64,000 nt of DNA from assembly GCF_003019035.1 (NCBI RefSeq), contig NZ_CP027447.1. One strand, written 5' to 3'. The translations under genes were made by a program, and so were the position numbers. The notes under the pieces were generated by a model, which was not told the origin of the DNA, did not search any database, and was given only the letters and a program-made list of their open reading frames with translations. Positions 3,221 through 31,115 of the stretch are shown piece after piece. Numbering within the stretch: position 1 is the stretch's first letter; each line of letters starts with the position of its first letter. This DNA comes from Escherichia coli (GTDB lineage Bacteria; Pseudomonadota; Gammaproteobacteria; Enterobacterales; Enterobacteriaceae).

Positions 3221-4306
3221 TTACTGCACGCGCGCCAGCGCCACGGCTTGTCCTAACTGCCAGACCGCCATTGCGTAATGGGTGCTGTGGTTATAACGGG
3301 TAATGGTGTAGAAGTTCGGCAGACCGTACCAGTACTGGTAACCTGTTCCAACATCCAGACGCAGCAGGCTGGCTTGTTGATGGTTGCCCAGCGGCTGCTG
3401 TGGCGTTAAACCTGCCGCGGCAAGTTGTGAAATGCTGTACTTGGTTTTGAAGCCATTTGGCAAGCCTGGAGCCTGACCGTTTGCCATCACCGCAACCTGA
3501 TCACCTTTCACCCAGCCGTGCGCTTTGAAATAGTTCGCCACACTACCAATGGCATCAACCGGATCCCACAGGTTGATATGCCCGTCGCCGCTGAAATCTA
3601 CCGCATATTGTTTGTAAGACGACGGCATAAACTGTCCGTAGCCCATCGCCCCGGCAAAGGAACCTTTCAGATTGAGCGGATCGTCCTGCTCATCGCGCGC
3701 CATCAGCAGGAAAGTTTCCAGCTCGCCAGAGAAATACTCCGCGCGGCGTGGGTAGTTAAATGACAGCGTTGCCAGCGCATCGAGGATACGGGTTTTCCCC
3801 ATCACGCGCCCCCAACGGGTTTCAACGCCGATAATCCCGACGATAATTTCCGGCGGTACGCCATACACCTGCCACGCGCGATTCAACGCATCTTCATACT
3901 GATTCCAGAAAACCACACCATTCTGCACGTTGTCCGGCGTAATAAATTTTTTGCGATAACGCAGCCATGCGCCGTTCGGACCTGATGGCGGTTTCACCGA
4001 TGTGGTTGGTGCCTGGTTATCCATCAGCCGCAGTACCGAATCCAGACGTTTCGCCTGAGAGAGAATTTCCTGCAACTGCTGACGATCGAAACCGTGTTTG
4101 TTCACCATTTTGTCGATGAACTGCTGGGCATTCGGGTTATTGGCGAAGTCACCGCCCATCTGCATCACATTGTGCTGCGGCTCAAGCAGGAAGCCGCCAG
4201 ACGGCGTTCCGGTGGTCGTTTCAGTCTCAGTAGGTTTTGGCTTGCTGCTACAGGCGGCAAGCAACACAAAAAGGGGAAGCAATGTTACATAACGACGCTT
4301 GAACAT
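3221..4306 (-). CDS. mltB: Membrane-bound lytic murein transglycosylase B
   Basis: Lipoprotein N-terminus MFKRRYVTLLPLFVLLAACSS (lipobox LAAC); track ORF extends 35 codons upstream of the likely start. Confidence 0.9.
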   Translation of the reverse strand: MFKRRYVTLLPLFVLLAACSSKPKPTETETTTGTPSGGFLLEPQHNVMQMGGDFANNPNAQQFIDKMVNKHGFDRQQLQEILSQAKRLDSVLRLMDNQAPTTSVKPPSGPNGAWLRYRKKFITPDNVQNGVVFWNQYEDALNRAWQVYGVPPEIIVGIIGVETRWGRVMGKTRILDALATLSFNYPRRAEYFSGELETFLLMARDEQDDPLNLKGSFAGAMGYGQFMPSSYKQYAVDFSGDGHINLWDPVDAIGSVANYFKAHGWVKGDQVAVMANGQAPGLPNGFKTKYSISQLAAAGLTPQQPLGNHQQASLLRLDVGTGYQYWYGLPNFYTITRYNHSTHYAMAVWQLGQAVALARVQ

Positions 4307-4544
4307 GAGGGGTCCATTTAACAGATTCAACCAGGGGCAAGTATGGTAAAGCATCCCGCCCCGCACAAGGAAGCGGTAGTCACTGCCCGATACGGACTTT
4401 ACATAACTCAACTCATTCTCCTCACTACCTTCTTTATATAAACTTTCAAAATAAAATATTTATCTTTCATTTTGCGATCAAAATAACACTTTTAAATCTT
4501 TCAATCTGATTAGATTAGATTGCCGTTTGGTAATAAAACAATAA

Positions 4545-6082
<1,538 letters not shown>

Positions 6083-18193: not shown

Positions 18194-21084
<2,891 letters not shown>

Positions 21085-21092
21085 GTAACCGT

Positions 21093-21155
21093 GCCGGATG
21101 CGGCGTGAACGCCTTATCCGGCCTACAAGGCCCGATAAGCGTTGCGCATCGGGCA
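21093..21155. repeat. REP elements (two palindromic units)
   Basis: gccggatgcggcgtgaacgccttatccggcctac is the classic REP consensus; second unit cccgataagcgttgcgcatcggg. Confidence 0.8.
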
Positions 21156-21170
21156 ATCTGGCGTTTGGCA

Positions 21171-21434
21171 TCAGAGCTGGTTCACCCCATCAAGAACATC
21201 CCCCTTTATCAAGCAACGCTGCGTCAGCGCCAGATCTTCCGATTGCGGGTCGCGCCCGGCGATGGGTTTGAGGACGAGTTTACGGTTGGGGGTATAAGTA
21301 AAACGCGTGAGCGCGGGATAGCTTAACTTGCCAAACCAGCCGTGAACACGCTGCCATTTGGCGTCTTTTACCTGATACAGACTGGTTATCCAGTAACCGG
21401 AATCAAACTGCATATCCAGCAATTGCGTGTGGCC
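21171..21434 (-). pseudogene. C-terminal fragment of a host ORF split by the prophage
   Basis: Frame is continuous with the N-terminal fragment at 57696..58204 once the prophage and one copy of the direct repeat are removed. Confidence 0.7.
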
Positions 21435-21440
21435 ATTCCT
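21435..21440. repeat. Left target-site duplication (ATTCCT; 5 or 6 bp)
   Basis: Identical ATTCCT immediately flanks the other prophage end at 57695..57700. Confidence 0.7.
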
Positions 21441-21483
21441 TGATCAGACATGAGATAAATGAAGGGGGATCCGTGAGATAAAT
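21441..21483. repeat. Left prophage end with putative transposase-binding repeats
   Basis: TGAGATAAAT at 21451 and 21474; inverted copy at the right end (57652..57661). Confidence 0.6.
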
Positions 21484-21801
21484 AACGAATTGGAGTGGGT
21501 TAACATGGGTTCTGGTGAACAGAACTGAAATTCTTTTTCGTTATACGATAGATAAGTCGGACATTGAAATCATCCTTTCTGGCAACTTAGAATCGAGTTT
21601 GCTGAAACATGACTCGTAACAAAAAGGATGATTCCAATGACTACTCAAAACAATAAGCATGATAGCCTGGATTACTCAGAAAAGCCCAAAAGCAAGCACA
21701 TCGTGACGTTCGAGCGCGATTCCGGTAGAAAAGGAGAATCGTCTTCCTCTGCCAATAAAAACACTATACCGGCAGCTCCTGCTCCGGGGAAAAAATAAAC
21801 A

Positions 21802-22434
21802 TCATTCATCGTTCGTTGCACGAACGCGCCTGATCTCCACTCTGGCAATCTGATCTGCTGGAATATAGGTTGCCAGAGCTCCCCAGTACTTATCAACCAC
21901 GCCTTTATACTCTTCCCATTCGTTACTGCCTGAAGGGCTGCTGTGTGTGACGTAAAGAACCATATCGCCTTTATTCCCCAGGGTAAACGGACCGTTAGGC
22001 CACTCTTCAAAGTTCCCTGGCAGTCGTGACATCATACCGGAACCATCGCGAAGAATCACTCTGACCTCGGTGACGCTGAAGTCTGTTTGATCAAACATTG
22101 CCTGCCATGCTGAGCTGGTATCGTCAGACCATGAAATATCATTATTCCACAGTAATCTGTACATCCATTTGCGACCGTACCTGCGCCACCACGCACCACA
22201 TGTAACAGCACACAGAAGTGCTGGTGGTGTTGCCAGCCAGGCATTCAGACCTGCCCACATAACAGCCTGGTAAGCCATCATTGCTGTCAGGCCAAAAATT
22301 AGCGAAGAAAAAGTCACCTCAATGGGTTTGTGCTGATCCTTCAGCCCCACATTCGCAATAAAATACCCAATATAGCCACTGGTCAGAGTCACCAGTGTTG
22401 CCCATGGCAAATTTAACAACGAAACGTCAAACAT
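21802..22434 (-). CDS. Hypothetical membrane protein (three predicted TM helices plus ~130 aa soluble domain); terminal moron
   Basis: ORF with GGAG RBS before MFDVSLLNL; lies between the mor terminator and the prophage left end; lower GC than neighbouring phage genes. Confidence 0.55.
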   Translation of the reverse strand: MFDVSLLNLPWATLVTLTSGYIGYFIANVGLKDQHKPIEVTFSSLIFGLTAMMAYQAVMWAGLNAWLATPPALLCAVTCGAWWRRYGRKWMYRLLWNNDISWSDDTSSAWQAMFDQTDFSVTEVRVILRDGSGMMSRLPGNFEEWPNGPFTLGNKGDMVLYVTHSSPSGSNEWEEYKGVVDKYWGALATYIPADQIARVEIRRVRATNDE

Positions 22435-22472
22435 ATTTTCTCCCTGCATCCTGAATACTACAGAGAGAGCAT

Positions 22473-22504
22473 AAAAAAAGCACGGTAAGGGGTCTACCGT
22501 GCTT
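22473..22504 (-). terminator. Rho-independent terminator downstream of mor
   Basis: Stem agcacggta/taccgtgct followed by a U7 run on the minus-strand transcript. Confidence 0.7.
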
Positions 22505-22548
22505 TTATACAATAAGGAGATTTTTGAAAGGACTTTAACAAGCAGGAA

Positions 22549-22947
22549 TTATCTGGATTTGTTAACGTCTCTCGTCTCTTCTGGCAGATCTTCATCAAAC
22601 AACCTGCCCTGCATCCGATCCAGTTCTTCTTTTCTGACCCGCTTAACCACGCTGTAGACCCACTGAAGCGAAACACCAAACTTGCGGGCCAGTTCATGGT
22701 GGTTGCGTCCGTTAAACTCCCGGAAGATTTCCCGGTCGCGCTGACTGACCTTCCATACCATGCCCATCGGGAAATAAACGTTTTGCCCGCCCCAGACCTG
22801 CATCATGCGGTTCGCGACGGCCTGACCAATCTGGTCGGCAATTGCGGGCTCAATATCAATAATCTCGCGAACGGTCTCAGAGGTATGCTGTGCCAGTTCC
22901 ACCAGGAGTTCCGGCCCTTTACTTCGAAACTGATTCAGGTCGCTCAT
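22549..22947 (-). CDS. mor: Mor/C-family middle/late transcription activator
   Basis: IFREFNGRNHHELARKFGVSLQWVYSVVKRVRK closely resembles the conserved Mu Mor C-terminal HTH region. Confidence 0.75.
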   Translation of the reverse strand: MSDLNQFRSKGPELLVELAQHTSETVREIIDIEPAIADQIGQAVANRMMQVWGGQNVYFPMGMVWKVSQRDREIFREFNGRNHHELARKFGVSLQWVYSVVKRVRKEELDRMQGRLFDEDLPEETRDVNKSR

Positions 22948-23371
22948 GTTTTACTCCCGCAGCTCTGCGCTGCCACTTCTTCAGTTTCTCAATAACACTG
23001 CTTGCCTGTTCTGTATTGAGCCAGCGCAGGGCGCTGATGCCCGTTTCCCGCTTGATCCACCGCGCTAATGCATTTTCTGAACGGTCACGAACAATGCCGG
23101 CAGCAGCCATTTCAAGCCATAGCGCACGGATTTTCCTGGACTGCGGATGGTTATCCAGCGGTAAACCGGAGCTGGCTTTTCCGGCAGGCTTAACGCGAAA
23201 GCCTTTCCTTTTCATGGATTCCAGCACGCAGTTTAGTTGTGTGGTATCCATTCCTTTGGTTGAGGCTTTACCGGTCAGCCCCTGTAACATCTGGCGGTAG
23301 GTGTCTTCATCCATACCCAGTTCATTACGGGCAATATGAATGAGCTGGATAAGACGTTGTTTAGTCATCAT
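22919..23371 (-). CDS. GemA-like (Mu gp16 family) protein
   Basis: Position immediately upstream of mor as in Mu; start codon uncertain (track ORF extends to 23410). Confidence 0.5.
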   Translation of the reverse strand: MMTKQRLIQLIHIARNELGMDEDTYRQMLQGLTGKASTKGMDTTQLNCVLESMKRKGFRVKPAGKASSGLPLDNHPQSRKIRALWLEMAAAGIVRDRSENALARWIKRETGISALRWLNTEQASSVIEKLKKWQRRAAGVKHERPESVSK

Positions 23372-23576
23372 CGTTGCTCCTTTTACCTGCGCCACCGATA
23401 TAATCGACATATAAAGGAAGCGCCACAGGCCAGCACAGGAACATCACCGACCAGCTAATCCAGTAGCCGGCACCACTGTAACGTGAATAAAACCCTGAAC
23501 GGCGGTGCAGTTCAGCAGTACACCAACCGACAAAACAATACCAGAACAGGGCACATACAACAGATTCAGCCGTCAT
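23361..23576 (-). CDS. Small hypothetical membrane protein (~71 aa, two hydrophobic segments)
   Basis: MTAESVVCALFWYCFVGW...; GGGGGA RBS; overlaps neighbouring genes in the early operon. Confidence 0.4.
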   Translation of the reverse strand: MTAESVVCALFWYCFVGWCTAELHRRSGFYSRYSGAGYWISWSVMFLCWPVALPLYVDYIGGAGKRSNDDD

Positions 23577-23796
23577 TCTGAATATCCCCCCAACTGATAT
23601 GAATATTACGGGCAGCAATGACAGGGTCGTTATCCCACCATGCACCTGACATGTATTTTTCAACCTGTTCGCGTCCGGCAATAACACCAATTGTGATCCC
23701 CGGCCTGACGTTCTTAAAAAAGGCGCGGGCAAAAAGGTATCTGGCAGATATTCGGCAGGCTTTTAATTTCCGGCTGTTACCTGATAGCGTAATCAT
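23566..23796 (-). CDS. Hypothetical early protein (76 aa)
   Basis: ATGA start/stop overlap with the upstream gene. Confidence 0.35.
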   Translation of the reverse strand: MITLSGNSRKLKACRISARYLFARAFFKNVRPGITIGVIAGREQVEKYMSGAWWDNDPVIAARNIHISWGDIQNDG

Positions 23797-24476
23797 CTGG
23801 CCTCCAGTTTCTGTTGTTCCTGCCCACTGACCGGGCGGTGCAGTCTGACGTTCTGCCCTTCACGAAACCCCGCATAGCGCGAGGCGTCACCATTGCGGCT
23901 TCTTCCCGGTTTACGCGCCCTGGTGGTTTGCGTTTGCGGGTATTTATGTTCCAGCCACTGCTGCATCAGTTCACGTTCGTCATCAGTCAGGGCGAAGGAC
24001 TGTATTTCACTGATAACGGCCAGCACCCAGCCTTCAGCAAACTGGTCTCCACGGCTGGTGCGGGTGGCGGTTTTTATTCTTTTGTTCTGTGTGCTGATAT
24101 ACTGCTGACGCGCCTTTTTCAGCTGGCGGGCCAGCACTTCCCAAGTGTACGCAGCCAGTGCGGCCCGTTCCCGGTTGCCGTAGAATCCCACACCCGGATA
24201 TGTGCCGGGGTGAATGATGGAGTTAACACCAAATGCCTCGCGGATGATGTTCATCAGGCCCAACATATAGCGCGGTGGACGGAGGCTGCCTGTCGGCCAG
24301 TAGTGGCTGATGGTTTCATCAATATCACTCATGGCAATGTCGGAATGTGTGATGCCGTGAACATCCATCAGTTTACGGGCACGGCGCAGTGCCAGAGCGG
24401 CCTCGTGCGGGTTGCCGGATGCAGCCAGCGCCAGCAGTTTTTTCAGTTTCTCAATGTGTTTATCCAGGTCTGTCAT
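23793..24476 (-). CDS. Hypothetical early protein (227 aa)
   Basis: Long ORF in the early operon; no recognisable catalytic motif. Confidence 0.5.
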   Translation of the reverse strand: MTDLDKHIEKLKKLLALAASGNPHEAALALRRARKLMDVHGITHSDIAMSDIDETISHYWPTGSLRPPRYMLGLMNIIREAFGVNSIIHPGTYPGVGFYGNRERAALAAYTWEVLARQLKKARQQYISTQNKRIKTATRTSRGDQFAEGWVLAVISEIQSFALTDDERELMQQWLEHKYPQTQTTRARKPGRSRNGDASRYAGFREGQNVRLHRPVSGQEQQKLEAR

Positions 24477-24778
24477 TGTTCGGTATCTCCGGTGTACATG
24501 ACGCCCAGCCGTGCGGCAAGGCGTTCCAGTTTTTTCTGTTTGTGGAAGTCAATCAGCCGGCCCATCCCCTGAAGACGCAACTGCTCTGTCATGATTTCCA
24601 CGTCTGCCAGCTCTGCCGCGAGGTCACTTTCGCTGCCCTGTCCGTTCAGGTTGCGGGCAGCACTGGCCGCCAGTTCGGCGGCCTCTTCTGTCAGTTTCAG
24701 GGCCTGTGCATCCGGCCCGAAACGCTGCAGAGCCAGACGATAGAGGGCAGTGCGTGTGAGTATGGTGTTCCGTGTCAT
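24473..24778 (-). CDS. Small all-alpha NTP pyrophosphohydrolase-like (MazG-like) protein
   Basis: LTEEAAELAASAARN...LAAELADVEIMTEQL resembles the paired E-rich helices of MazG-type domains. Confidence 0.45.
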   Translation of the reverse strand: MTRNTILTRTALYRLALQRFGPDAQALKLTEEAAELAASAARNLNGQGSESDLAAELADVEIMTEQLRLQGMGRLIDFHKQKKLERLAARLGVMYTGDTEQ

Positions 24779-24787
24779 GCCGCGCCC

Positions 24788-25060
24788 TCAGTGCTTCCGG
24801 TCGACGGTGATGTGCAGGCCGCCTTCTGCAGTGGTTTCCATCCGGTACGGCACCTCATGCTCTGCCGTGTGGGTGAGTGTGTTCACCAGTACCTGCAGGG
24901 CAGCCTCCTTTCCGTTGGTCGTCACAATGGCCTGAGCGGCCATGCTGATTAGCGCTGTCAGGACGTGCTTCACATCGGTGAGGTCGCGGCATTCACACTC
25001 GTTGACATAGTGTTCAACAAGGGTTCGGGTGCGCTGTCGTGCTTCCTGTGGGGTAATCAT
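24788..25060 (-). CDS. Hypothetical early protein (90 aa)
   Basis: ORF in the early operon. Confidence 0.4.
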   Translation of the reverse strand: MITPQEARQRTRTLVEHYVNECECRDLTDVKHVLTALISMAAQAIVTTNGKEAALQVLVNTLTHTAEHEVPYRMETTAEGGLHITVDRKH

Positions 25061-25251
25061 TGCGAGTCCTCCCTGTCAGGGCGGGAGAATTCCATGACGG
25101 GCACGTCCGCTGAAAAATGTTGGCTGCAGTACGGACAGACCAGGGTGACGCGCACTGCAGGTACGTGGTACTTACCGGACATCACGGCGATGGCGCTGTG
25201 AAAACGCAGGGCTGTTATATCCCTCTCGCACTGAATACATTTAAATATCAT
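25057..25251 (-). CDS. Small zinc-ribbon protein (64 aa)
   Basis: Two CxxC pairs (CIQC ... CPYC). Confidence 0.45.
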   Translation of the reverse strand: MIFKCIQCERDITALRFHSAIAVMSGKYHVPAVRVTLVCPYCSQHFSADVPVMEFSRPDREDSQ

Positions 25252-25348
25252 GATTTAATTCTCCTCTGTTTCCGGCGTGCAGAAGCCCACGGCGCTGACG
25301 CCGGAATAAAAAAGAAAATGTTTTTATTAAATAATTAACGTGGTGTGT

Positions 25349-25879
25349 TTACTGCACATCCTGCTCAAAAGGAATTATTGAAAAATCCTCAATATCACTT
25401 TTTATGGTAATACCGGGAATATTTTTCACGGCCTCTTTTTCATTCAGAATGGCATCTTTATTTATTTCCTCTTTTACACGAATAAAGCGCTCAAGCCCCA
25501 GACGTCTCAGTAGTTCAATAACATTATCCGCTCCACGGATACTGACTGATGGCGGACGGTTTCGCCACTGCACCTCGCCGGTGGTGAGGTTAGCGAACTT
25601 CACCTTCCCGTTGCCGGTCAGTTCATCACGGTGTGCCTCACACCATGTCTGAATACCGGACTGCAGTTCGGCCATGCGTTTTTTCAGGCTCTCGGTGAGC
25701 GGGGCATAACGTGCGGTGATATCGCCAATGGCGTCATTCATTTCTGTTTCAGCCCTGACCAGTTCACGTTGTGCGTCACCGAGCAGTCTGATTCCCTCAA
25801 TGACCTCTTCGCGTGTCCCCGGTACCCAGAGTGCCGCTGCGGACTTGATACGTTTTGCCCCTTTTGTACTTTTTGCCAT
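25349..25879 (-). CDS. gam: Gam-like host-nuclease inhibitor (DNA-end binding)
   Basis: 176 aa; AKRIKSAAA, RPPSVSIRG and GITIKSDIEDFSIIPFEQ closely match Mu Gam. Confidence 0.85.
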   Translation of the reverse strand: MAKSTKGAKRIKSAAALWVPGTREEVIEGIRLLGDAQRELVRAETEMNDAIGDITARYAPLTESLKKRMAELQSGIQTWCEAHRDELTGNGKVKFANLTTGEVQWRNRPPSVSIRGADNVIELLRRLGLERFIRVKEEINKDAILNEKEAVKNIPGITIKSDIEDFSIIPFEQDVQ

Positions 25880-25906
25880 ATCTTATGATTTCTCCGGTTG
25901 TGCTGA

Positions 25907-26176
25907 TTACCACAAAGATTCCGGCCACACGACGCGACAGCCGTGCAGTTCGAAAACGCCCTGACGGAAATATCCCCTGTGGTCATGTCCGGTATACAGA
26001 TAACAGGCCTTTCCCTGCTCAAGCATGCGCATGCAATGCGCACTTCGGGAAACGCGGATGACAGGTTTGTTACCCCTGATGGTGATGCTTTGTACATCCG
26101 TGTTCGTCGCCTTAAGCGCCATAATGGCTGACTGCACTTTGCTGATTTGCTGGTTGATACCTGTGGTGGATTTCAT
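25907..26176 (-). CDS. Hypothetical early protein (89 aa) in the position of Mu kil
   Basis: ORF immediately downstream of B. Confidence 0.4.
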   Translation of the reverse strand: MKSTTGINQQISKVQSAIMALKATNTDVQSITIRGNKPVIRVSRSAHCMRMLEQGKACYLYTGHDHRGYFRQGVFELHGCRVVWPESLW

Positions 26177-26178
26177 TA

Positions 26179-27345
26179 TTAAACCCCTTTGACAACGTCA
26201 GCGTTGACCTGTGGAACCCCGATTTCAGCGGCCAGATTCATGGCGGCTATCACCAGGTTACTGACGGCCAGCGGATACAACAGGCTGACCATATTTTTAC
26301 GATGACTTCCCGGATTGCTCAGGCGGGCACGTATGGCATCCACTGCACTGGCGTCCATAATGTCCGTCAGTTGTTTACCTGCCCGTTGCAGTTTGAACGT
26401 CAGAAACTCTTCAAGGTTATTGTCCAGAGGCAGAAGTTCGACCACCTCACAGCGCTGAACGACTTCACGGACTTCCATATTGCGTTCAGACAGTTTTGTC
26501 GCCAGTTCCGGCTGGCCAATCAGCACGATGGACAGCAGTTTTTTGAAACCGGACTCCAGCTCAAAAAAGCGTTTGAGGTGTTTCAGTGTCGGAATGGGCA
26601 GACTGTGGGCCTCCTCAATCACCAGAACGTGGCTGAACCCCGCCTGGCTGCTGTCTTTCAGGACGCGATGCAACTGGCGAAAGCGGGCGTCCTGACTGCG
26701 TCTGATGCTTTCCAGTGGTGCGATGGTACTGATAATGGCTTCGGCAATAGCTGCTGCCTTCAGGGTTTTCCCTTTCACATCGTTGTCTTCCATAGCGATG
26801 ATGTATGGCTCGATAACAATTACCGGCGCATTCTCGCGGTTGATACGTTCAGTCAGGTCGCGGCGCAGCGTGGATTTACCCGCACCGGACTCACCGATGA
26901 CGGCCATAAACCCACCATGACGGGCTGTCTGGTACAACGCCTCACGCACGTAGCGAATGTCCGGGGTGGTGAACACATCATCAGAACCCTGCATGGCTTC
27001 GTCGGCGAACGGGTCACGGAAAAGACCAAACGCTTTTTTGGTTGCTGGAAATAACACCTGTTTTTTGAGTAACATATTCTCTTCCTCACTGAGGCTCGTT
27101 TTATCTGTGGTACCCGCTGTACGGGGCGTGGCCGCGCCCTGTACAGCATCAAAACTCTTCGCTGTATCAATCCCCTGACTTTCCAGCCAGGACGCAAGAC
27201 GCCGGCGCACTTCTCCGGGGCTGGTGCGGGGCCACGCGTTATGATTCACAATCTGGGCCAGCGTGGCCTCAGAAACATCGACAGCTCTCGCCACCACCGC
27301 CTGTGGAATACGGGCCTCTTTCAGTTGCTGCTTCAGTACCAGCAT
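26179..27345 (-). CDS. Transposition ATPase (Mu B-like AAA+ protein)
   Basis: Walker A GESGAGKST; N-terminal HTH-like region; GAGGAGG RBS; immediately downstream of the transposase. Confidence 0.8.
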   Translation of the reverse strand: MLVLKQQLKEARIPQAVVARAVDVSEATLAQIVNHNAWPRTSPGEVRRRLASWLESQGIDTAKSFDAVQGAATPRTAGTTDKTSLSEEENMLLKKQVLFPATKKAFGLFRDPFADEAMQGSDDVFTTPDIRYVREALYQTARHGGFMAVIGESGAGKSTLRRDLTERINRENAPVIVIEPYIIAMEDNDVKGKTLKAAAIAEAIISTIAPLESIRRSQDARFRQLHRVLKDSSQAGFSHVLVIEEAHSLPIPTLKHLKRFFELESGFKKLLSIVLIGQPELATKLSERNMEVREVVQRCEVVELLPLDNNLEEFLTFKLQRAGKQLTDIMDASAVDAIRARLSNPGSHRKNMVSLLYPLAVSNLVIAAMNLAAEIGVPQVNADVVKGV

Positions 27346-27355
27346 GTTTCCCTCC

Positions 27356-29125
27356 TCAGTTGCCGTTAACAATGCTGATAACGCTGCTGCGGGCCGGCGT
27401 GGTCAGCGTGGCCATGACTTCATCCAGTGCGGCTTCCGGTACGCCGTCCGGGTACTGTGCCGTTAACTGGCGGTAATGTTCCGGCGTCCAGGTAAGGCCG
27501 TCGGCGCTGAACTTATCGCGCAGGGCTTTCGCGGCCTCCACATGAGTCATGGGACGTTGTTCAGTGCGCGGTCTGCGTACATCAGAGGCCTGACCGCGCT
27601 TCGGTATACAGGCCGGAAGTGTGGCGTCATCAATATGTTTATACGGGTCAAGCCGCCCGCCGAACGGCAGCGCCTTCGCCTTGCGTGCGGCAGCTGCATC
27701 TGCGGCGTTGTCTGTACCGGTGACCAGCGCTTCGGTTTCTTTTGCCGCCGTCTGTGCCGGTGTTTCCGGCAGGGCTTTGTAACTTTCGCCAAATACCGCC
27801 GCGCCTTCAGCAAAGCCAAACTCGTTCTTTCTGACCTCTTCGACCAGGAAGAACGTCTCGTGGCCGTCCTCACCGGTCAGAACCACCTGTGCCACATCGC
27901 TGCGCCATGGGTTACGGGTAATCATCAGTTTTTCACCAACCAGTACGCCCGGTACCGTTGATACGTCAAATTCAGTGCCCCGGAACGAGACACGAAGTTT
28001 TGGCGTGACTTTGCGGAGTTCTGGTGTCGTCACAGCCAGTTCACGGCATACCTCAACGGAAGGCGCTTTTTTCAGCTGCTCAGCAGTAATCTTCAGCCAG
28101 ATATCCGTGCGGGTTTTACCGTGGCGGCTGTGAACAGCTGTTGCGTTAAAGTGGCTACGCCATTTCGCGGCCAGCGCGTTGAGTTCTTCCAGACTGTGAA
28201 CCGGCCGGAACTTCAGACCCGGCTCCAGCTTGCGTTCGATAATGTCACGCGCCTTTTCCACCTGTCCGGTGGCGCGGGCGTTATGCGGCTTGTGCGCTAT
28301 CAGGTCGATGCCCAGTGAGCGGCACATGTTTTTCGTCATACCCGCGGTGTTTGCCGAGCCGGGGTCGAGATAGAGTATTTTCGGCACGCCGTGCAGCACG
28401 TCTGCGCCGCCACGCTCCTGCATGGCGTTGATAAGCACAGAACACAGGTTCTCACCGGATTCCGCACCCGTCACATACTCAACGTAAATCCAGCCGCTGG
28501 CATGGTCGGTAATCTCGTAACTCCACACGCGGTCACTGGCGATACGGGCAAGGTTAGCGGGCTTGTTCTTGTAGAACTTCGCGCTGTCCATCACCTGCAG
28601 CCCTTTGTGTCCATTGCTCAGGTAGTAAAGCGTGCAGAGAGAGGCATCAATCTGCCAGACATGATTGGGATGCAGACTGGCCACTTCGGTATGCGGCGCA
28701 GGGGCATCCAGTTGTTCCGGGTGCAGGCCATAGTTACGCAGGGCACGGCTGATAGCATCTTCGGACAACGGGAAAAACTCACCGGTGGTTTCATCTGTTC
28801 TGCCTGCGGAGATAAAGCCGTTAGCCCGCAGGGTTTCCACTGCATCTGCGATGGAATAGAGACGCTTACCGTTCTTGCGGGTGGCCTCACGTAGTGTGGC
28901 AGATATCAGCGCGGCTTCGTCGCGGGTCAGGGCGCTGCGCCCGGCATCGGCGCGTTTTTTGCGTTTATCAGTCACAGAGACCTCCTTCAGCCTGCGCAGC
29001 AGAGTGGCGCGGGACATGCCAAGTTCAGCACAGGCGGCGTCATATATTGCACCACGTTTACCATGCCCCGCGTCACGTGCCGCGCGGGCGACATAAACCA
29101 GTCGTTCAGTCAGGGCAGCATTCAT
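27356..29125 (-). CDS. DDE transposase (Mu A-like)
   Basis: 589 aa; N-terminal HTH-like region, integrase-core motifs (HVWQIDAS, YLDPGSANT). Confidence 0.8.
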   Translation of the reverse strand: MNAALTERLVYVARAARDAGHGKRGAIYDAACAELGMSRATLLRRLKEVSVTDKRKKRADAGRSALTRDEAALISATLREATRKNGKRLYSIADAVETLRANGFISAGRTDETTGEFFPLSEDAISRALRNYGLHPEQLDAPAPHTEVASLHPNHVWQIDASLCTLYYLSNGHKGLQVMDSAKFYKNKPANLARIASDRVWSYEITDHASGWIYVEYVTGAESGENLCSVLINAMQERGGADVLHGVPKILYLDPGSANTAGMTKNMCRSLGIDLIAHKPHNARATGQVEKARDIIERKLEPGLKFRPVHSLEELNALAAKWRSHFNATAVHSRHGKTRTDIWLKITAEQLKKAPSVEVCRELAVTTPELRKVTPKLRVSFRGTEFDVSTVPGVLVGEKLMITRNPWRSDVAQVVLTGEDGHETFFLVEEVRKNEFGFAEGAAVFGESYKALPETPAQTAAKETEALVTGTDNAADAAAARKAKALPFGGRLDPYKHIDDATLPACIPKRGQASDVRRPRTEQRPMTHVEAAKALRDKFSADGLTWTPEHYRQLTAQYPDGVPEAALDEVMATLTTPARSSVISIVNGN

Positions 29126-29128
29126 TGG

Positions 29129-30043
29129 TTATGCCTCCAGCCCGTTAATCTGTGGCGTCGGCTCAGTCAGCCATGAAGGCGCGACATCGCCTGTTGGCTC
29201 GTCCGGCAGGTCAAATGTGGAGCGCAGGCTACGCGCTGTGCTTTCCAGTTGACAGACCAGGCCTGCCATGAAGTCTCTGGGGGTATCAATCATGTTTTCA
29301 GCACAATATGCGCACAGCGTCTCAAAAGCGCTGGACAGTCGAACGGCGATAGCAGATTCCGCCTCAACCGCTAATGCTGTCACTTCCGCCCGCAGCTTCT
29401 TAACCTCTTCATCAGGCTCAGGCGGCTGAATACGGGATTTCTTCTCCAGTTTTGTGGAAAGCGAGTCGATTTTTTCGTTTTTGTCGGCCAGCACGCGCTG
29501 TTGTGCTGCGTTGGTTTCGCGGGCTTCGCGCAGGGCCTGACGCAATTCACGTACTGACATGCGATCAACGTCGTCAAGCGTCAGGCCGGCAACTGTGCCG
29601 CCGTCGGCCAATTCATCAAGTTCTTCATTATCCAGAACCATCAGGTCGTACAGTTTGGCTTTCCCCAAAACGCTCAACGTTGAGCGTTTTGTTGGCTCAT
29701 CACCTTCTCCCAAAAACTTCATACTGGCTTGCATCATGCGGCGAGCAACTTGTGGTGCAAGTCCGAGTTCATTTTCTAAAATGTTTGTAAAATCACCGTG
29801 TGGCTCATTTTCTTTTAAGATGATCAGCCGTTTACCCGCTTCCAGCATAGATTCAGCACTCTGCGCCATATAAAAACGTGCTTCGTGAACAATGCGATCA
29901 CGTTCATAAGGCAGTCCATCACCAAACTGCTGCATAATTTCCATGCGATGCTGTGTCATAGCGTTCAAATTGACATTGATGTTATCTGACAGCGGAACCT
30001 CAACATTCAGTTCAGTGTTAACGGGTGATTTGGTGCGTCCCAT
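29129..30043 (-). CDS. Hypothetical conserved early protein (304 aa, coiled-coil C-terminal half)
   Basis: ORF between the Ner-like genes and the transposase. Confidence 0.5.
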   Translation of the reverse strand: MGRTKSPVNTELNVEVPLSDNINVNLNAMTQHRMEIMQQFGDGLPYERDRIVHEARFYMAQSAESMLEAGKRLIILKENEPHGDFTNILENELGLAPQVARRMMQASMKFLGEGDEPTKRSTLSVLGKAKLYDLMVLDNEELDELADGGTVAGLTLDDVDRMSVRELRQALREARETNAAQQRVLADKNEKIDSLSTKLEKKSRIQPPEPDEEVKKLRAEVTALAVEAESAIAVRLSSAFETLCAYCAENMIDTPRDFMAGLVCQLESTARSLRSTFDLPDEPTGDVAPSWLTEPTPQINGLEA

Positions 30044-30053
30044 TGATTACTCC

Positions 30054-30425
30054 TTACAAACGACTACCTGAAATAACTCGTTGGTTGATTTCGTTAATAC
30101 GATCCTGTGCACGCGCCATCTCGTGACTGTGAGCCATGGCGATCTGTAGTAACTGGATTCCCGGTGCGAAACGTCCGTTCTCTAATTTCATGGCCAGTCC
30201 CTCTTCAATAAGGGTATTAAGTGCTCGATTGATATTCGCCGGGGACTCCCCCAGGGCTGATGCCAGTTCACCGTTAGAAACACCGTTCAGAGCATGACCG
30301 CGTAGAGCTTTGAGTACACGTAGGATGCGGCTCCCGGAACTGGAAATATTTACTTTACTCATGTCACATTTCCATTTTTGCAATATGTGATAACCTGTTG
30401 CATATGTGGAAAATTTATGCCGCAT
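30054..30425 (-). CDS. Putative winged-helix DNA-binding protein
   Basis: SRILRVLKALRGHALNGVSNGELASALGESPANINRALNTLIEEGL resembles MarR/IclR-type wHTH; start uncertain (alternative Met at 30362). Confidence 0.45.
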   Translation of the reverse strand: MRHKFSTYATGYHILQKWKCDMSKVNISSSGSRILRVLKALRGHALNGVSNGELASALGESPANINRALNTLIEEGLAMKLENGRFAPGIQLLQIAMAHSHEMARAQDRINEINQRVISGSRL

Positions 30426-30603
30426 TTGACGTGGGTTTTAATCCCAGTTTTACGGCAATTTCATGGGCTTTGCCGTAACGAGCTTTGGTCTGTCCATTGA
30501 GAACACGATAGACCTCATTGCGGCTGTAGCCGTGTTCTTCGGCCCAGCGGGTAAACGTGATACCACGCTGACGGAAGAGATTTTTAACTTGTTCGGAAGT
30601 CAT
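30415..30603 (-). CDS. Small HTH DNA-binding protein in the Ner position (first gene of the early operon)
   Basis: 62 aa with AGGAG RBS; divergent from the repressor gene. Confidence 0.55.
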   Translation of the reverse strand: MTSEQVKNLFRQRGITFTRWAEEHGYSRNEVYRVLNGQTKARYGKAHEIAVKLGLKPTSNAA

Positions 30604-30689
30604 TGTTGTCTCCTTTGTTGATGCAATGATGTTTGTTTTATATGTGATAGATTATGTGAACTATTGTTCTCATTGTCAATGAGGTTTAT
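30604..30689. promoter_or_regulatory. Divergent early/repressor promoter-operator region
   Basis: 86 bp AT-rich spacer between divergent starts; three direct copies of TATGTGA (30641, 30653, 30687). Confidence 0.55.
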
Positions 30690-31115
30690 GTGAATTTTGA
30701 TTCTCTTTGCGCGTCGCGGTTCAAAGCTGAGCGTTCGCGGTTATCACTCAAGCAGGCTGAAGTAGCAGCCCTTTGTGGCGTTTCAAGAGAAATGTGGGGG
30801 AAATATGAACGAGGGGTTGCTGTTCCCGGAGGTGAGTTACTTGCAGCCTTTGCAAGAATTGGGGCCAATGTACAGTTCATTCTTACCGGGGAGTCATCAG
30901 GTATAACTTTATCACGTGATGAAATGGAGTTACTGCAGCACTACCGGCAAGCACCGTTACAGGTCAAAGGTTCAGTTTTGTCGGCTTTGACTACTGGCTC
31001 CTCCAGAGAACGGGCGGAACAGGTTATTCATGGAGATGTTCTGGGGAATGTTATCAAAGGTAACGTAACCATAGGAACAGGTGGAATAATGAACAAAAAT
31101 ACCAAGAGAAGATGA
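30690..31115 (+). CDS. Prophage repressor (XRE-family HTH)
   Basis: GTG start with GAGG RBS; HTH LSLKQAEVAALCGVSREMWGKYERG; divergent from the transposition operon. Confidence 0.75.
   Translation: MNFDSLCASRFKAERSRLSLKQAEVAALCGVSREMWGKYERGVAVPGGELLAAFARIGANVQFILTGESSGITLSRDEMELLQHYRQAPLQVKGSVLSALTTGSSRERAEQVIHGDVLGNVIKGNVTIGTGGIMNKNTKRR

Follow-up and report, generated by a model that had tools for sequence, protein, structure and literature searches.

An accessory block of six early-operon genes, one encoding a predicted MazG-like pyrophosphohydrolase, in a BcepMu-like prophage of Escherichia coli

Results

A block of six coupled genes between gam and gemA

We analysed a stretch of 64,000 nucleotides from Escherichia coli (contig NZ_CP027447.1 of assembly GCF_003019035.1; hereafter the window), in which a Mu-type transposable prophage occupies the segment from 21.4 to 58 kb within an enterobacterial chromosome. 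Between the gam gene and the gemA and mor genes of this prophage lies a block of six open reading frames (ORFs; 23361..25251, minus strand), which forms an accessory section, in 'semi-essential' position, of the early lytic operon; the prophage is BcepMu-like. Judged from its sequence, one of the encoded proteins, 101 amino acids (aa) long, is a single-domain member of the all-alpha nucleoside triphosphate (NTP) pyrophosphohydrolase (MazG/HisE) superfamily, with its four metal-binding acidic residues intact. The account that we favour, and to which as a whole we give an even chance, is that of an accessory early-operon block whose MazG-like enzyme would condition the nucleotide pool. From gam towards gemA, the six genes are:

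25057..25251, minus strand: ZnR64, a 64-aa predicted C4 zinc-ribbon protein, the first gene after gam (phrog_3401, E=2e-40)
24788..25060, minus strand: orf90, a 90-aa protein (phrog_3691, E=9e-55)
24473..24778, minus strand: the 101-aa predicted single-domain MazG-like all-alpha NTP pyrophosphohydrolase (PHROG 2245, E=5e-34)
23793..24476, minus strand: a 227-aa protein with DUF2786 (N-terminal helical hairpin) and DUF7168 (Pfam)
23566..23796, minus strand: orf76, a 76-aa protein (phrog_3681, E=3e-53)
23361..23576, minus strand: TM71, a small 71-aa protein with two hydrophobic segments (phrog_6436, E=2e-14; RefSeq coding sequence WP_000123379.1)

The first-pass annotation of this DNA, made from the letters alone, had described six tightly coupled small ORFs between gam and gemA, and both its coordinates and its description proved exact. 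ATGA overlaps were read from the sequence at three junctions (25057-60, 24473-76 and 23793-96), and the other junctions consist of a 9-nt gap (24779-87), an 11-nt overlap (23566-76) and an 8-nt overlap with gemA (23361-68). The six genes are thus translationally coupled. The mechanical ORF of TM71 extends to 23732, and RefSeq and the orthologues start at the ATG at 23576. The flanking Gam and GemA, like Mor, the transposase and B, were assigned through Pfam and PHROG. As in a Mu-type semi-essential region, the block lies on one strand between gam and gemA/mor, and neither an internal terminator nor an internal promoter was found; a consensus scan of 21300..26300 found no minus-strand promoter-like sites. 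The earlier assignment of the ORFs to the Mu semi-essential type therefore stands for their position, but not for the identity of the genes, since the MazG-like and DUF2786 proteins had no match in a phage Mu record.

Each of the six ORFs matches a PHROG family of its own (E 2e-14 to 5e-76). Selection was examined on orthologues from 79 related IMG/VR loci, gathered with the MazG-like alignment, by comparing them with the window sequence (Nei-Gojobori ratio of nonsynonymous to synonymous substitution rates, dN/dS). At 40-70% amino-acid identity, dN/dS was ~0.1-0.4 for all six genes, which are therefore real protein-coding genes. The ratio was ~0.16 for the MazG-like gene, 0.15-0.28 for ZnR64, 0.15-0.34 for orf76, 0.11-0.38 for TM71 and, against diverged orthologues, 0.15-0.39 for orf90. 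The plus-strand antisense ORFs at 23814..24572 and 24389..24952 were without comparable coding support. None of the six proteins matched a PADLOC-DB protein model at E<=0.1 or scored above threshold in NCBIfam, and literature searches on DUF2786 and on MazG in Mu-like prophages yielded no functional study of the block's genes. The block is already annotated likewise in RefSeq and PHROGs, and it is an ordinary, known kind of phage region.

The 101-aa protein belongs to a large clade with a conserved acidic motif

RefSeq names the 101-aa protein (WP_001610539.1) a nucleoside triphosphate pyrophosphohydrolase, as does PHROG 2245. An exhaustive search of 1.84 billion representatives with a profile of its close homologues returned 10,431 clusters (50% identity) at E<=1e-3, mostly of 90-110 aa, and this clade of more than 10,000 clusters apparently has no characterised member. 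In an alignment of 72 diverse clade members, E31 and D59 were invariant and E32, E35 and E56 were conserved in at least 90%. The pattern EExxE...ExxD is the Mg2+-binding motif of the all-alpha NTP pyrophosphohydrolase superfamily, so the MazG-like signature that had been read earlier in 24473..24778 is indeed present and conserved. Individually, 21 of the 72 members matched Pfam MazG (PF03819; E<0.01, best 2e-5). The clade profile matched the MazG structures 5ie9, 2q73, 2q5z, 1vmg and 2gta with weak E-values and with the motifs in register, EExxE and ExxD aligning onto the equivalent motifs of Bacillus MazG 5ie9. The predicted fold of the 101-aa protein is an all-alpha helical bundle with DCTPP1 as best Foldseek match; in the AlphaFold2 monomer there is one long C-terminal helix, and the fourth helix is not clear. 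Direct-sequence and close-family searches of the Protein Data Bank (PDB) brought up nothing but unrelated helical proteins, IWS1 and KaiA among them; MazG structures were reached through the wider profile and fold searches only.

Several observations weigh against this assignment or limit what follows from it. The 101-aa query itself falls under the thresholds of Pfam (of PF03819, PF01503 and PF12643 it reaches PRA-PH alone, with 14.4 bits vs 21.3; E=0.05) and NCBIfam (TIGR03188, 14.1 vs 42.7; E=0.04), and sequence and profile searches of the PDB with the MazG-like protein gave weak MazG matches only (E 0.015-0.3). Moreover, three relatives (L069, L070 and L072; MazG-like gene at 5001..5300) carry both E56K and D59G in an intact ORF, and catalysis is therefore not retained everywhere. 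The zinc-ribbon gene is absent from the same three loci. We nonetheless accept membership of the superfamily because several independent lines, namely PHROG, the profile clade, the motif and the Pfam matches of individual members, agree.

The three substituted relatives bear on a further possibility, that the protein is a small all-alpha binding or regulatory protein which uses its acidic motif for ligand sensing and not for turnover, in the manner of the dimeric phage dUTPases that derepress satellites. Loss of E56 and D59 from an ORF that is kept intact speaks for such a role, the protein is very small, and its genetic link with the zinc-ribbon protein suggests a complex. We consider a non-catalytic or moonlighting role improbable, however, since the catalytic tetrad is invariant or at least 90% conserved over the 72 diverse members, an argument that in most lineages it is catalysis that selection maintains.

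Genomic context and proposed action of the MazG-like enzyme

The MazG-like gene lies in the same Mu-like early operon in 68 of the 79 loci. In the 11 remaining, distant viral loci, which belong to unrelated phages or satellites, its neighbours encode a primase/helicase, DnaB or a terminase, and this neighbourhood is the usual site of nucleotide-metabolism accessories. Within the clade, P0070 and P0076 are tandem MazG-like duplications and P0196 is a fusion with a HAD-like hydrolase; such architectures fit a function in nucleotide catabolism.

In the favoured account of nucleotide-pool conditioning, the six genes would be expressed together, and only after infection or induction. The 101-aa protein, as an oligomer that depends on Mg2+, would split a nucleotide of the (d)NTP type at its alpha-beta bond, yielding (d)NMP and pyrophosphate, and would thereby remove non-canonical dNTPs or bias the pool during replication by transposition, with the C4 zinc-ribbon protein as its probable partner or regulator. 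We rank this activity first because (d)NTP substrates predominate among the small MazG-like enzymes characterised so far (iMazG, DCTPP1, DR2231 and cyanophage MazG).

Known structures of small single-domain MazG-like proteins include Sulfolobus SSO3215 (1vmg), the integron iMazG (2q5z), Bacillus MazG (5ie9), B. subtilis YpjD (2gta) and mouse RS21-C6/DCTPP1 (2oie/7mu5), and the HisE structures 3c90 and 1yvw are also among the closest known to the 101-aa protein. The latter differs from these solved enzymes in forming a distinct sequence clade, in falling under the Pfam MazG and PRA-PH thresholds and in its location in the early operon of a transposable phage. The MazG proteins of cyanophages and other marine phages resemble it in being phage-borne members of the MazG family for which a manipulation of host nucleotide or stringent-response physiology has been proposed (the phage MazG ppGpp hypothesis is summarised in PMC5498523). 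They match Pfam MazG, whereas the clade of the 101-aa protein is short and divergent, and its phage is temperate and transposable.

A defence role in the lysogen was also weighed. In some defence systems, MazG-like domains have been predicted to serve as effectors that target dNTPs, and in PUA-HAD systems they replace Calcineurin-CE (bioRxiv 10.64898/2026.01.15.699771); a HAD plus MazG-like fusion occurs in the present clade; by analogy, the prophage enzyme would drain dNTPs against incoming phages and so cause superinfection exclusion. Yet the gene forms part of the early lytic operon, has no minus-strand promoter-like site of its own and is hence expected to be silent in a lysogen, it has no PADLOC match, and a sensor partner such as a PUA domain is missing. 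For the first two reasons above all, we regard this explanation as highly improbable.

ZnR64 and its link to the MazG-like enzyme

The two CxxC pairs noted earlier in 25057..25251 were borne out: C5, C8, C39, P40 and C42 of ZnR64 are invariant among orthologues down to 30% identity, with a cysteine spacing of 30 residues, and the protein is predicted to be a C4 zinc ribbon. Pfam gave generic zinc-finger matches, all sub-threshold, and a profile search of the PDB found no significant relative. A translational activator of the Mu Com type was considered for ZnR64 and rejected, as no Com family was among the Pfam matches at E<=0.1 and the genes that follow it are orf90 and the MazG-like gene instead of mom.

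In the Klebsiella/Salmonella-type relatives and in L061, orf90 is absent and the zinc-ribbon gene lies directly upstream of the MazG-like gene or overlaps it. Furthermore, the top matches of the clade search include 49 clade members with a length of 130 aa or more, of which seven (P0142, P0182, P0195, P0069, P0077, P0121 and P0203) carry at least two extra CxxC motifs, fused N- or C-terminally. This frequency is far above the expectation from cysteine frequency. When ten of the longer clade members were scanned against Pfam for fusion partners, the result was mostly empty, with weak zinc-ribbon-type (L37ae, HypA) and weak HAD matches, and the CxxC count told more. The gene adjacency and the fused CxxC motifs suggest that ZnR64 and the MazG-like enzyme act together. 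Against this it must be set that the fused CxxC ribbons are a lead only, as putative homologues of ZnR64.

Upstream of the zinc-ribbon gene, in the intergenic region between gam and ZnR64 (window 25258..25319, minus strand), we observed a stable predicted RNA stem-loop with the core CCGGCGUCAGCGCC...GCACGCCGG (minimum free energy -33.5 kcal/mol, z = -4.3 vs shuffles). In its outer stem, the ribosome-binding site of the zinc-ribbon gene, GAGGAG, is paired with a U-run. The stem-loop is without a T tail and hence no canonical terminator, and it might affect translation or mRNA stability of the accessory block.

Distribution, mosaicism and divergence of the block

The block is present in 639 of 5,426 complete E. 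coli genomes (~12%). The B gene was found in 636 genomes at 704 places, mostly with at least 99% identity, and the MazG-like gene in 620 genomes at 674 places, mostly with 90-95% identity. The number of places, 674 against 704, makes the MazG-like gene nearly core to the lineage, yet the block has diverged further than the genes for transposition. It is a mosaic as well. One or two extra ORFs, on insertions of ~230 bp or ~590 bp, occur between the MazG-like and DUF2786 genes, and the DUF2786 gene, orf90 and orf76 are each missing from some relatives, orf90 from many Klebsiella/Salmonella-type loci.

The extra ORFs at the MazG-like/DUF2786 boundary (71 aa and 127 aa) are seen in some E. coli copies and in Escherichia phage PhiKM (L003 2674..3265; L002 5174..5389), and this boundary appears to be a local insertion hotspot. 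The Mu-type Gam is replaced at the same position (~4100..4900) by an unrelated protein of 202-203 aa (MEINKDDYMTDRKGRLVP...) in loci L046-L060, L062-L065 and L067-L072, which are seemingly of the Klebsiella/Salmonella type.

Distribution and divergence bear on the main competitor of nucleotide-pool conditioning, which was already hinted at in the first-pass annotation: that the MazG-like enzyme hydrolyses (p)ppGpp or destroys a triphosphate-type defence nucleotide, for instance a chain-terminating NTP analogue or a nucleotide signal, blunting abortive infection, while its neighbours are further anti-defence or host-takeover factors. There is a precedent in Atd1 of a Pectobacterium phage, whose MazG-like catalytic domain hydrolyses ppGpp (Michaelis constant about 50 uM) and not ribonucleoside triphosphates, and which protects against TIR-STING and retron-TIR (bioRxiv 10.1101/2022.06.09.495361). 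Like the 101-aa protein, Atd1 is phage-encoded, has a single MazG-like catalytic domain and lies among accessory genes. Unlike it, Atd1 comes from a virulent phage and adjoins nucleotidyltransferase genes, and its ppGpp specificity is not transferable by assumption. The first 50 kb of KY514263 (Pectobacterium phage vB_PatM_CB7, not confirmed as the PcCB7V of the preprint) contained no annotated MazG.

Counter-defence would agree with a block that is early-expressed and mosaic (gene gain and loss, the 230-bp and 590-bp insertions, two TM71 alleles), and the lower identity of the MazG-like segment than of B among E. coli copies is the pattern expected under diversifying conflict. However, a tblastn search of 50,697 phage records returned four relatives only, all from records of Mu-like phages of Escherichia or Klebsiella. 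In the lineage the gene is nearly core rather than sporadic, and its dN/dS indicates ordinary purifying selection. Nor was there a match to a PADLOC or anti-defence family, although the PADLOC models describe defence and not anti-defence. What points to the alarmone reading is position and the Atd1 precedent; it would be compatible with a mosaic, fast-diverging block, and we consider it rather unlikely. A more specific form, to which we give clearly less credence, holds that the zinc-ribbon and MazG-like proteins are a conserved two-gene counter-defence module for the early destruction of an anti-phage host nucleotide (an alarmone, an immune signal or a chain-terminating NTP analogue). If true, transposable phages, and temperate phages of other kinds, would share a widespread module for counter-defence that is so far uncharacterised.

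The other four proteins of the block

Besides ZnR64 and the MazG-like protein, the block encodes the 227-aa protein, orf76, orf90 and TM71. The 227-aa protein scored 43.0 bits for DUF2786 (PF10979; cut-off 23.9) and 92.9 bits for DUF7168 (PF23771; cut-off 25.5). Homologues of DUF7168 were found in 178 phage records, almost all of them from transposable phages, and segment 117-142 of the protein is conserved and rich in basic residues. It is an early protein conserved in transposable phages and may bind nucleic acid; its core is weakly KH-like, but without the GXXG loop. As a single sequence, the DUF7168 region weakly matched T4 lysozyme in the C-terminal lobe (E 0.09); this match disappeared with the family profile and was dismissed as due to chance.

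The core of orf76 is strongly conserved (FARAFFKNVRPGI.IGVIAGREQV..YMSGAWW), with 45 columns invariant across 6 diverged orthologues. It had no Pfam or PDB relatives and none beyond its PHROG, and orf90 had no relatives in Pfam, NCBIfam or the PDB. The alignment of TM71 orthologues contains two hydrophobic stretches, with a second allelic type at ~40% identity, so that TM71 is probably a two-pass membrane protein.

The early operon and its surroundings

Among isolated phages, Escherichia phage PhiKM, which is assigned to Bcepmuvirus, comes closest (95% identity), and the prophage belongs to the BcepMu-like group. Its early operon, on the minus strand, runs from the DUF3102 protein through A, B/ExeA, the 89-aa gene, Gam, the six-ORF block and GemA to Mor:

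29129..30043, minus strand: DUF3102 protein
27356..29125, minus strand: transposase A, an intact 589-aa ORF
26179..27372, minus strand: B/ExeA
25907..26176, minus strand: the 89-aa gene
25349..25879, minus strand: Gam, the upstream flank of the block (PF07352, E=6e-41)
22919..23368, minus strand: GemA/gp16, the downstream flank (PF06252, E=1e-40; start at 23368 as in RefSeq)
22549..22947, minus strand: the late-transcription activator Mor, last gene of the operon (PF08765, E=1e-43)
22476..22506, minus strand: intrinsic-terminator-like hairpin directly after mor, with a 13-bp stem and a T run (terminator scan)

The strong hairpin at 22476..22506 marks the end of the early operon. The arrangement is like that of the semi-essential region of phage Mu (kil, gam, sot, arm, cim, lig, gemA, mor), in which small coupled genes also lie between A, B, gam and gemA/mor on a single early transcript; it differs in that the individual genes of the block are not Mu genes and that this phage is BcepMu-like.

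Several features around the operon are recorded here. In E. coli IAL7250, the nearest E. coli genome, whose copy is 99.9% identical, the transposase A gene (L001 9057..10829) is annotated as a truncated pseudogene; the ORF in the window is intact. Past the early-operon terminator, at the prophage end, lies a gene for a 210-aa predicted membrane protein (21802..22434, minus strand) in a stretch of lower GC content (0.40-0.49), with a small ORF nearby (21628..21798, plus strand). The membrane protein matched neither Pfam nor PADLOC, a variant of ~65% identity is present in relatives, and its gene is a possible moron or lysogenic-conversion gene. To the left of the prophage, a 6-phospho-beta-glucosidase-like ORF (19648..21084) was read from the translation. 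It is followed, outside the left prophage end, by Rfam naRNA4 (REP-element type) matches of sub-gathering score at 21079..21155; an Rfam scan of 21000..31000 yielded nothing except these host matches.

Discussion

The present analysis confirms an existing annotation and does not reveal a new kind of system. What it adds is a modest lead, the linkage between the zinc-ribbon and MazG-like genes, and a structural hint for DUF7168. Roughly one complete E. coli genome in eight carries the prophage, and its MazG-like clade is very large. Knowledge of the substrate would tell whether such small and ubiquitous phage enzymes serve pool sanitation, the silencing of the stringent response or the disarming of nucleotide-based immunity. 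What chiefly remains of value is the MazG-like clade, very large and uncharacterised, together with the zinc-ribbon partner that recurs in it.

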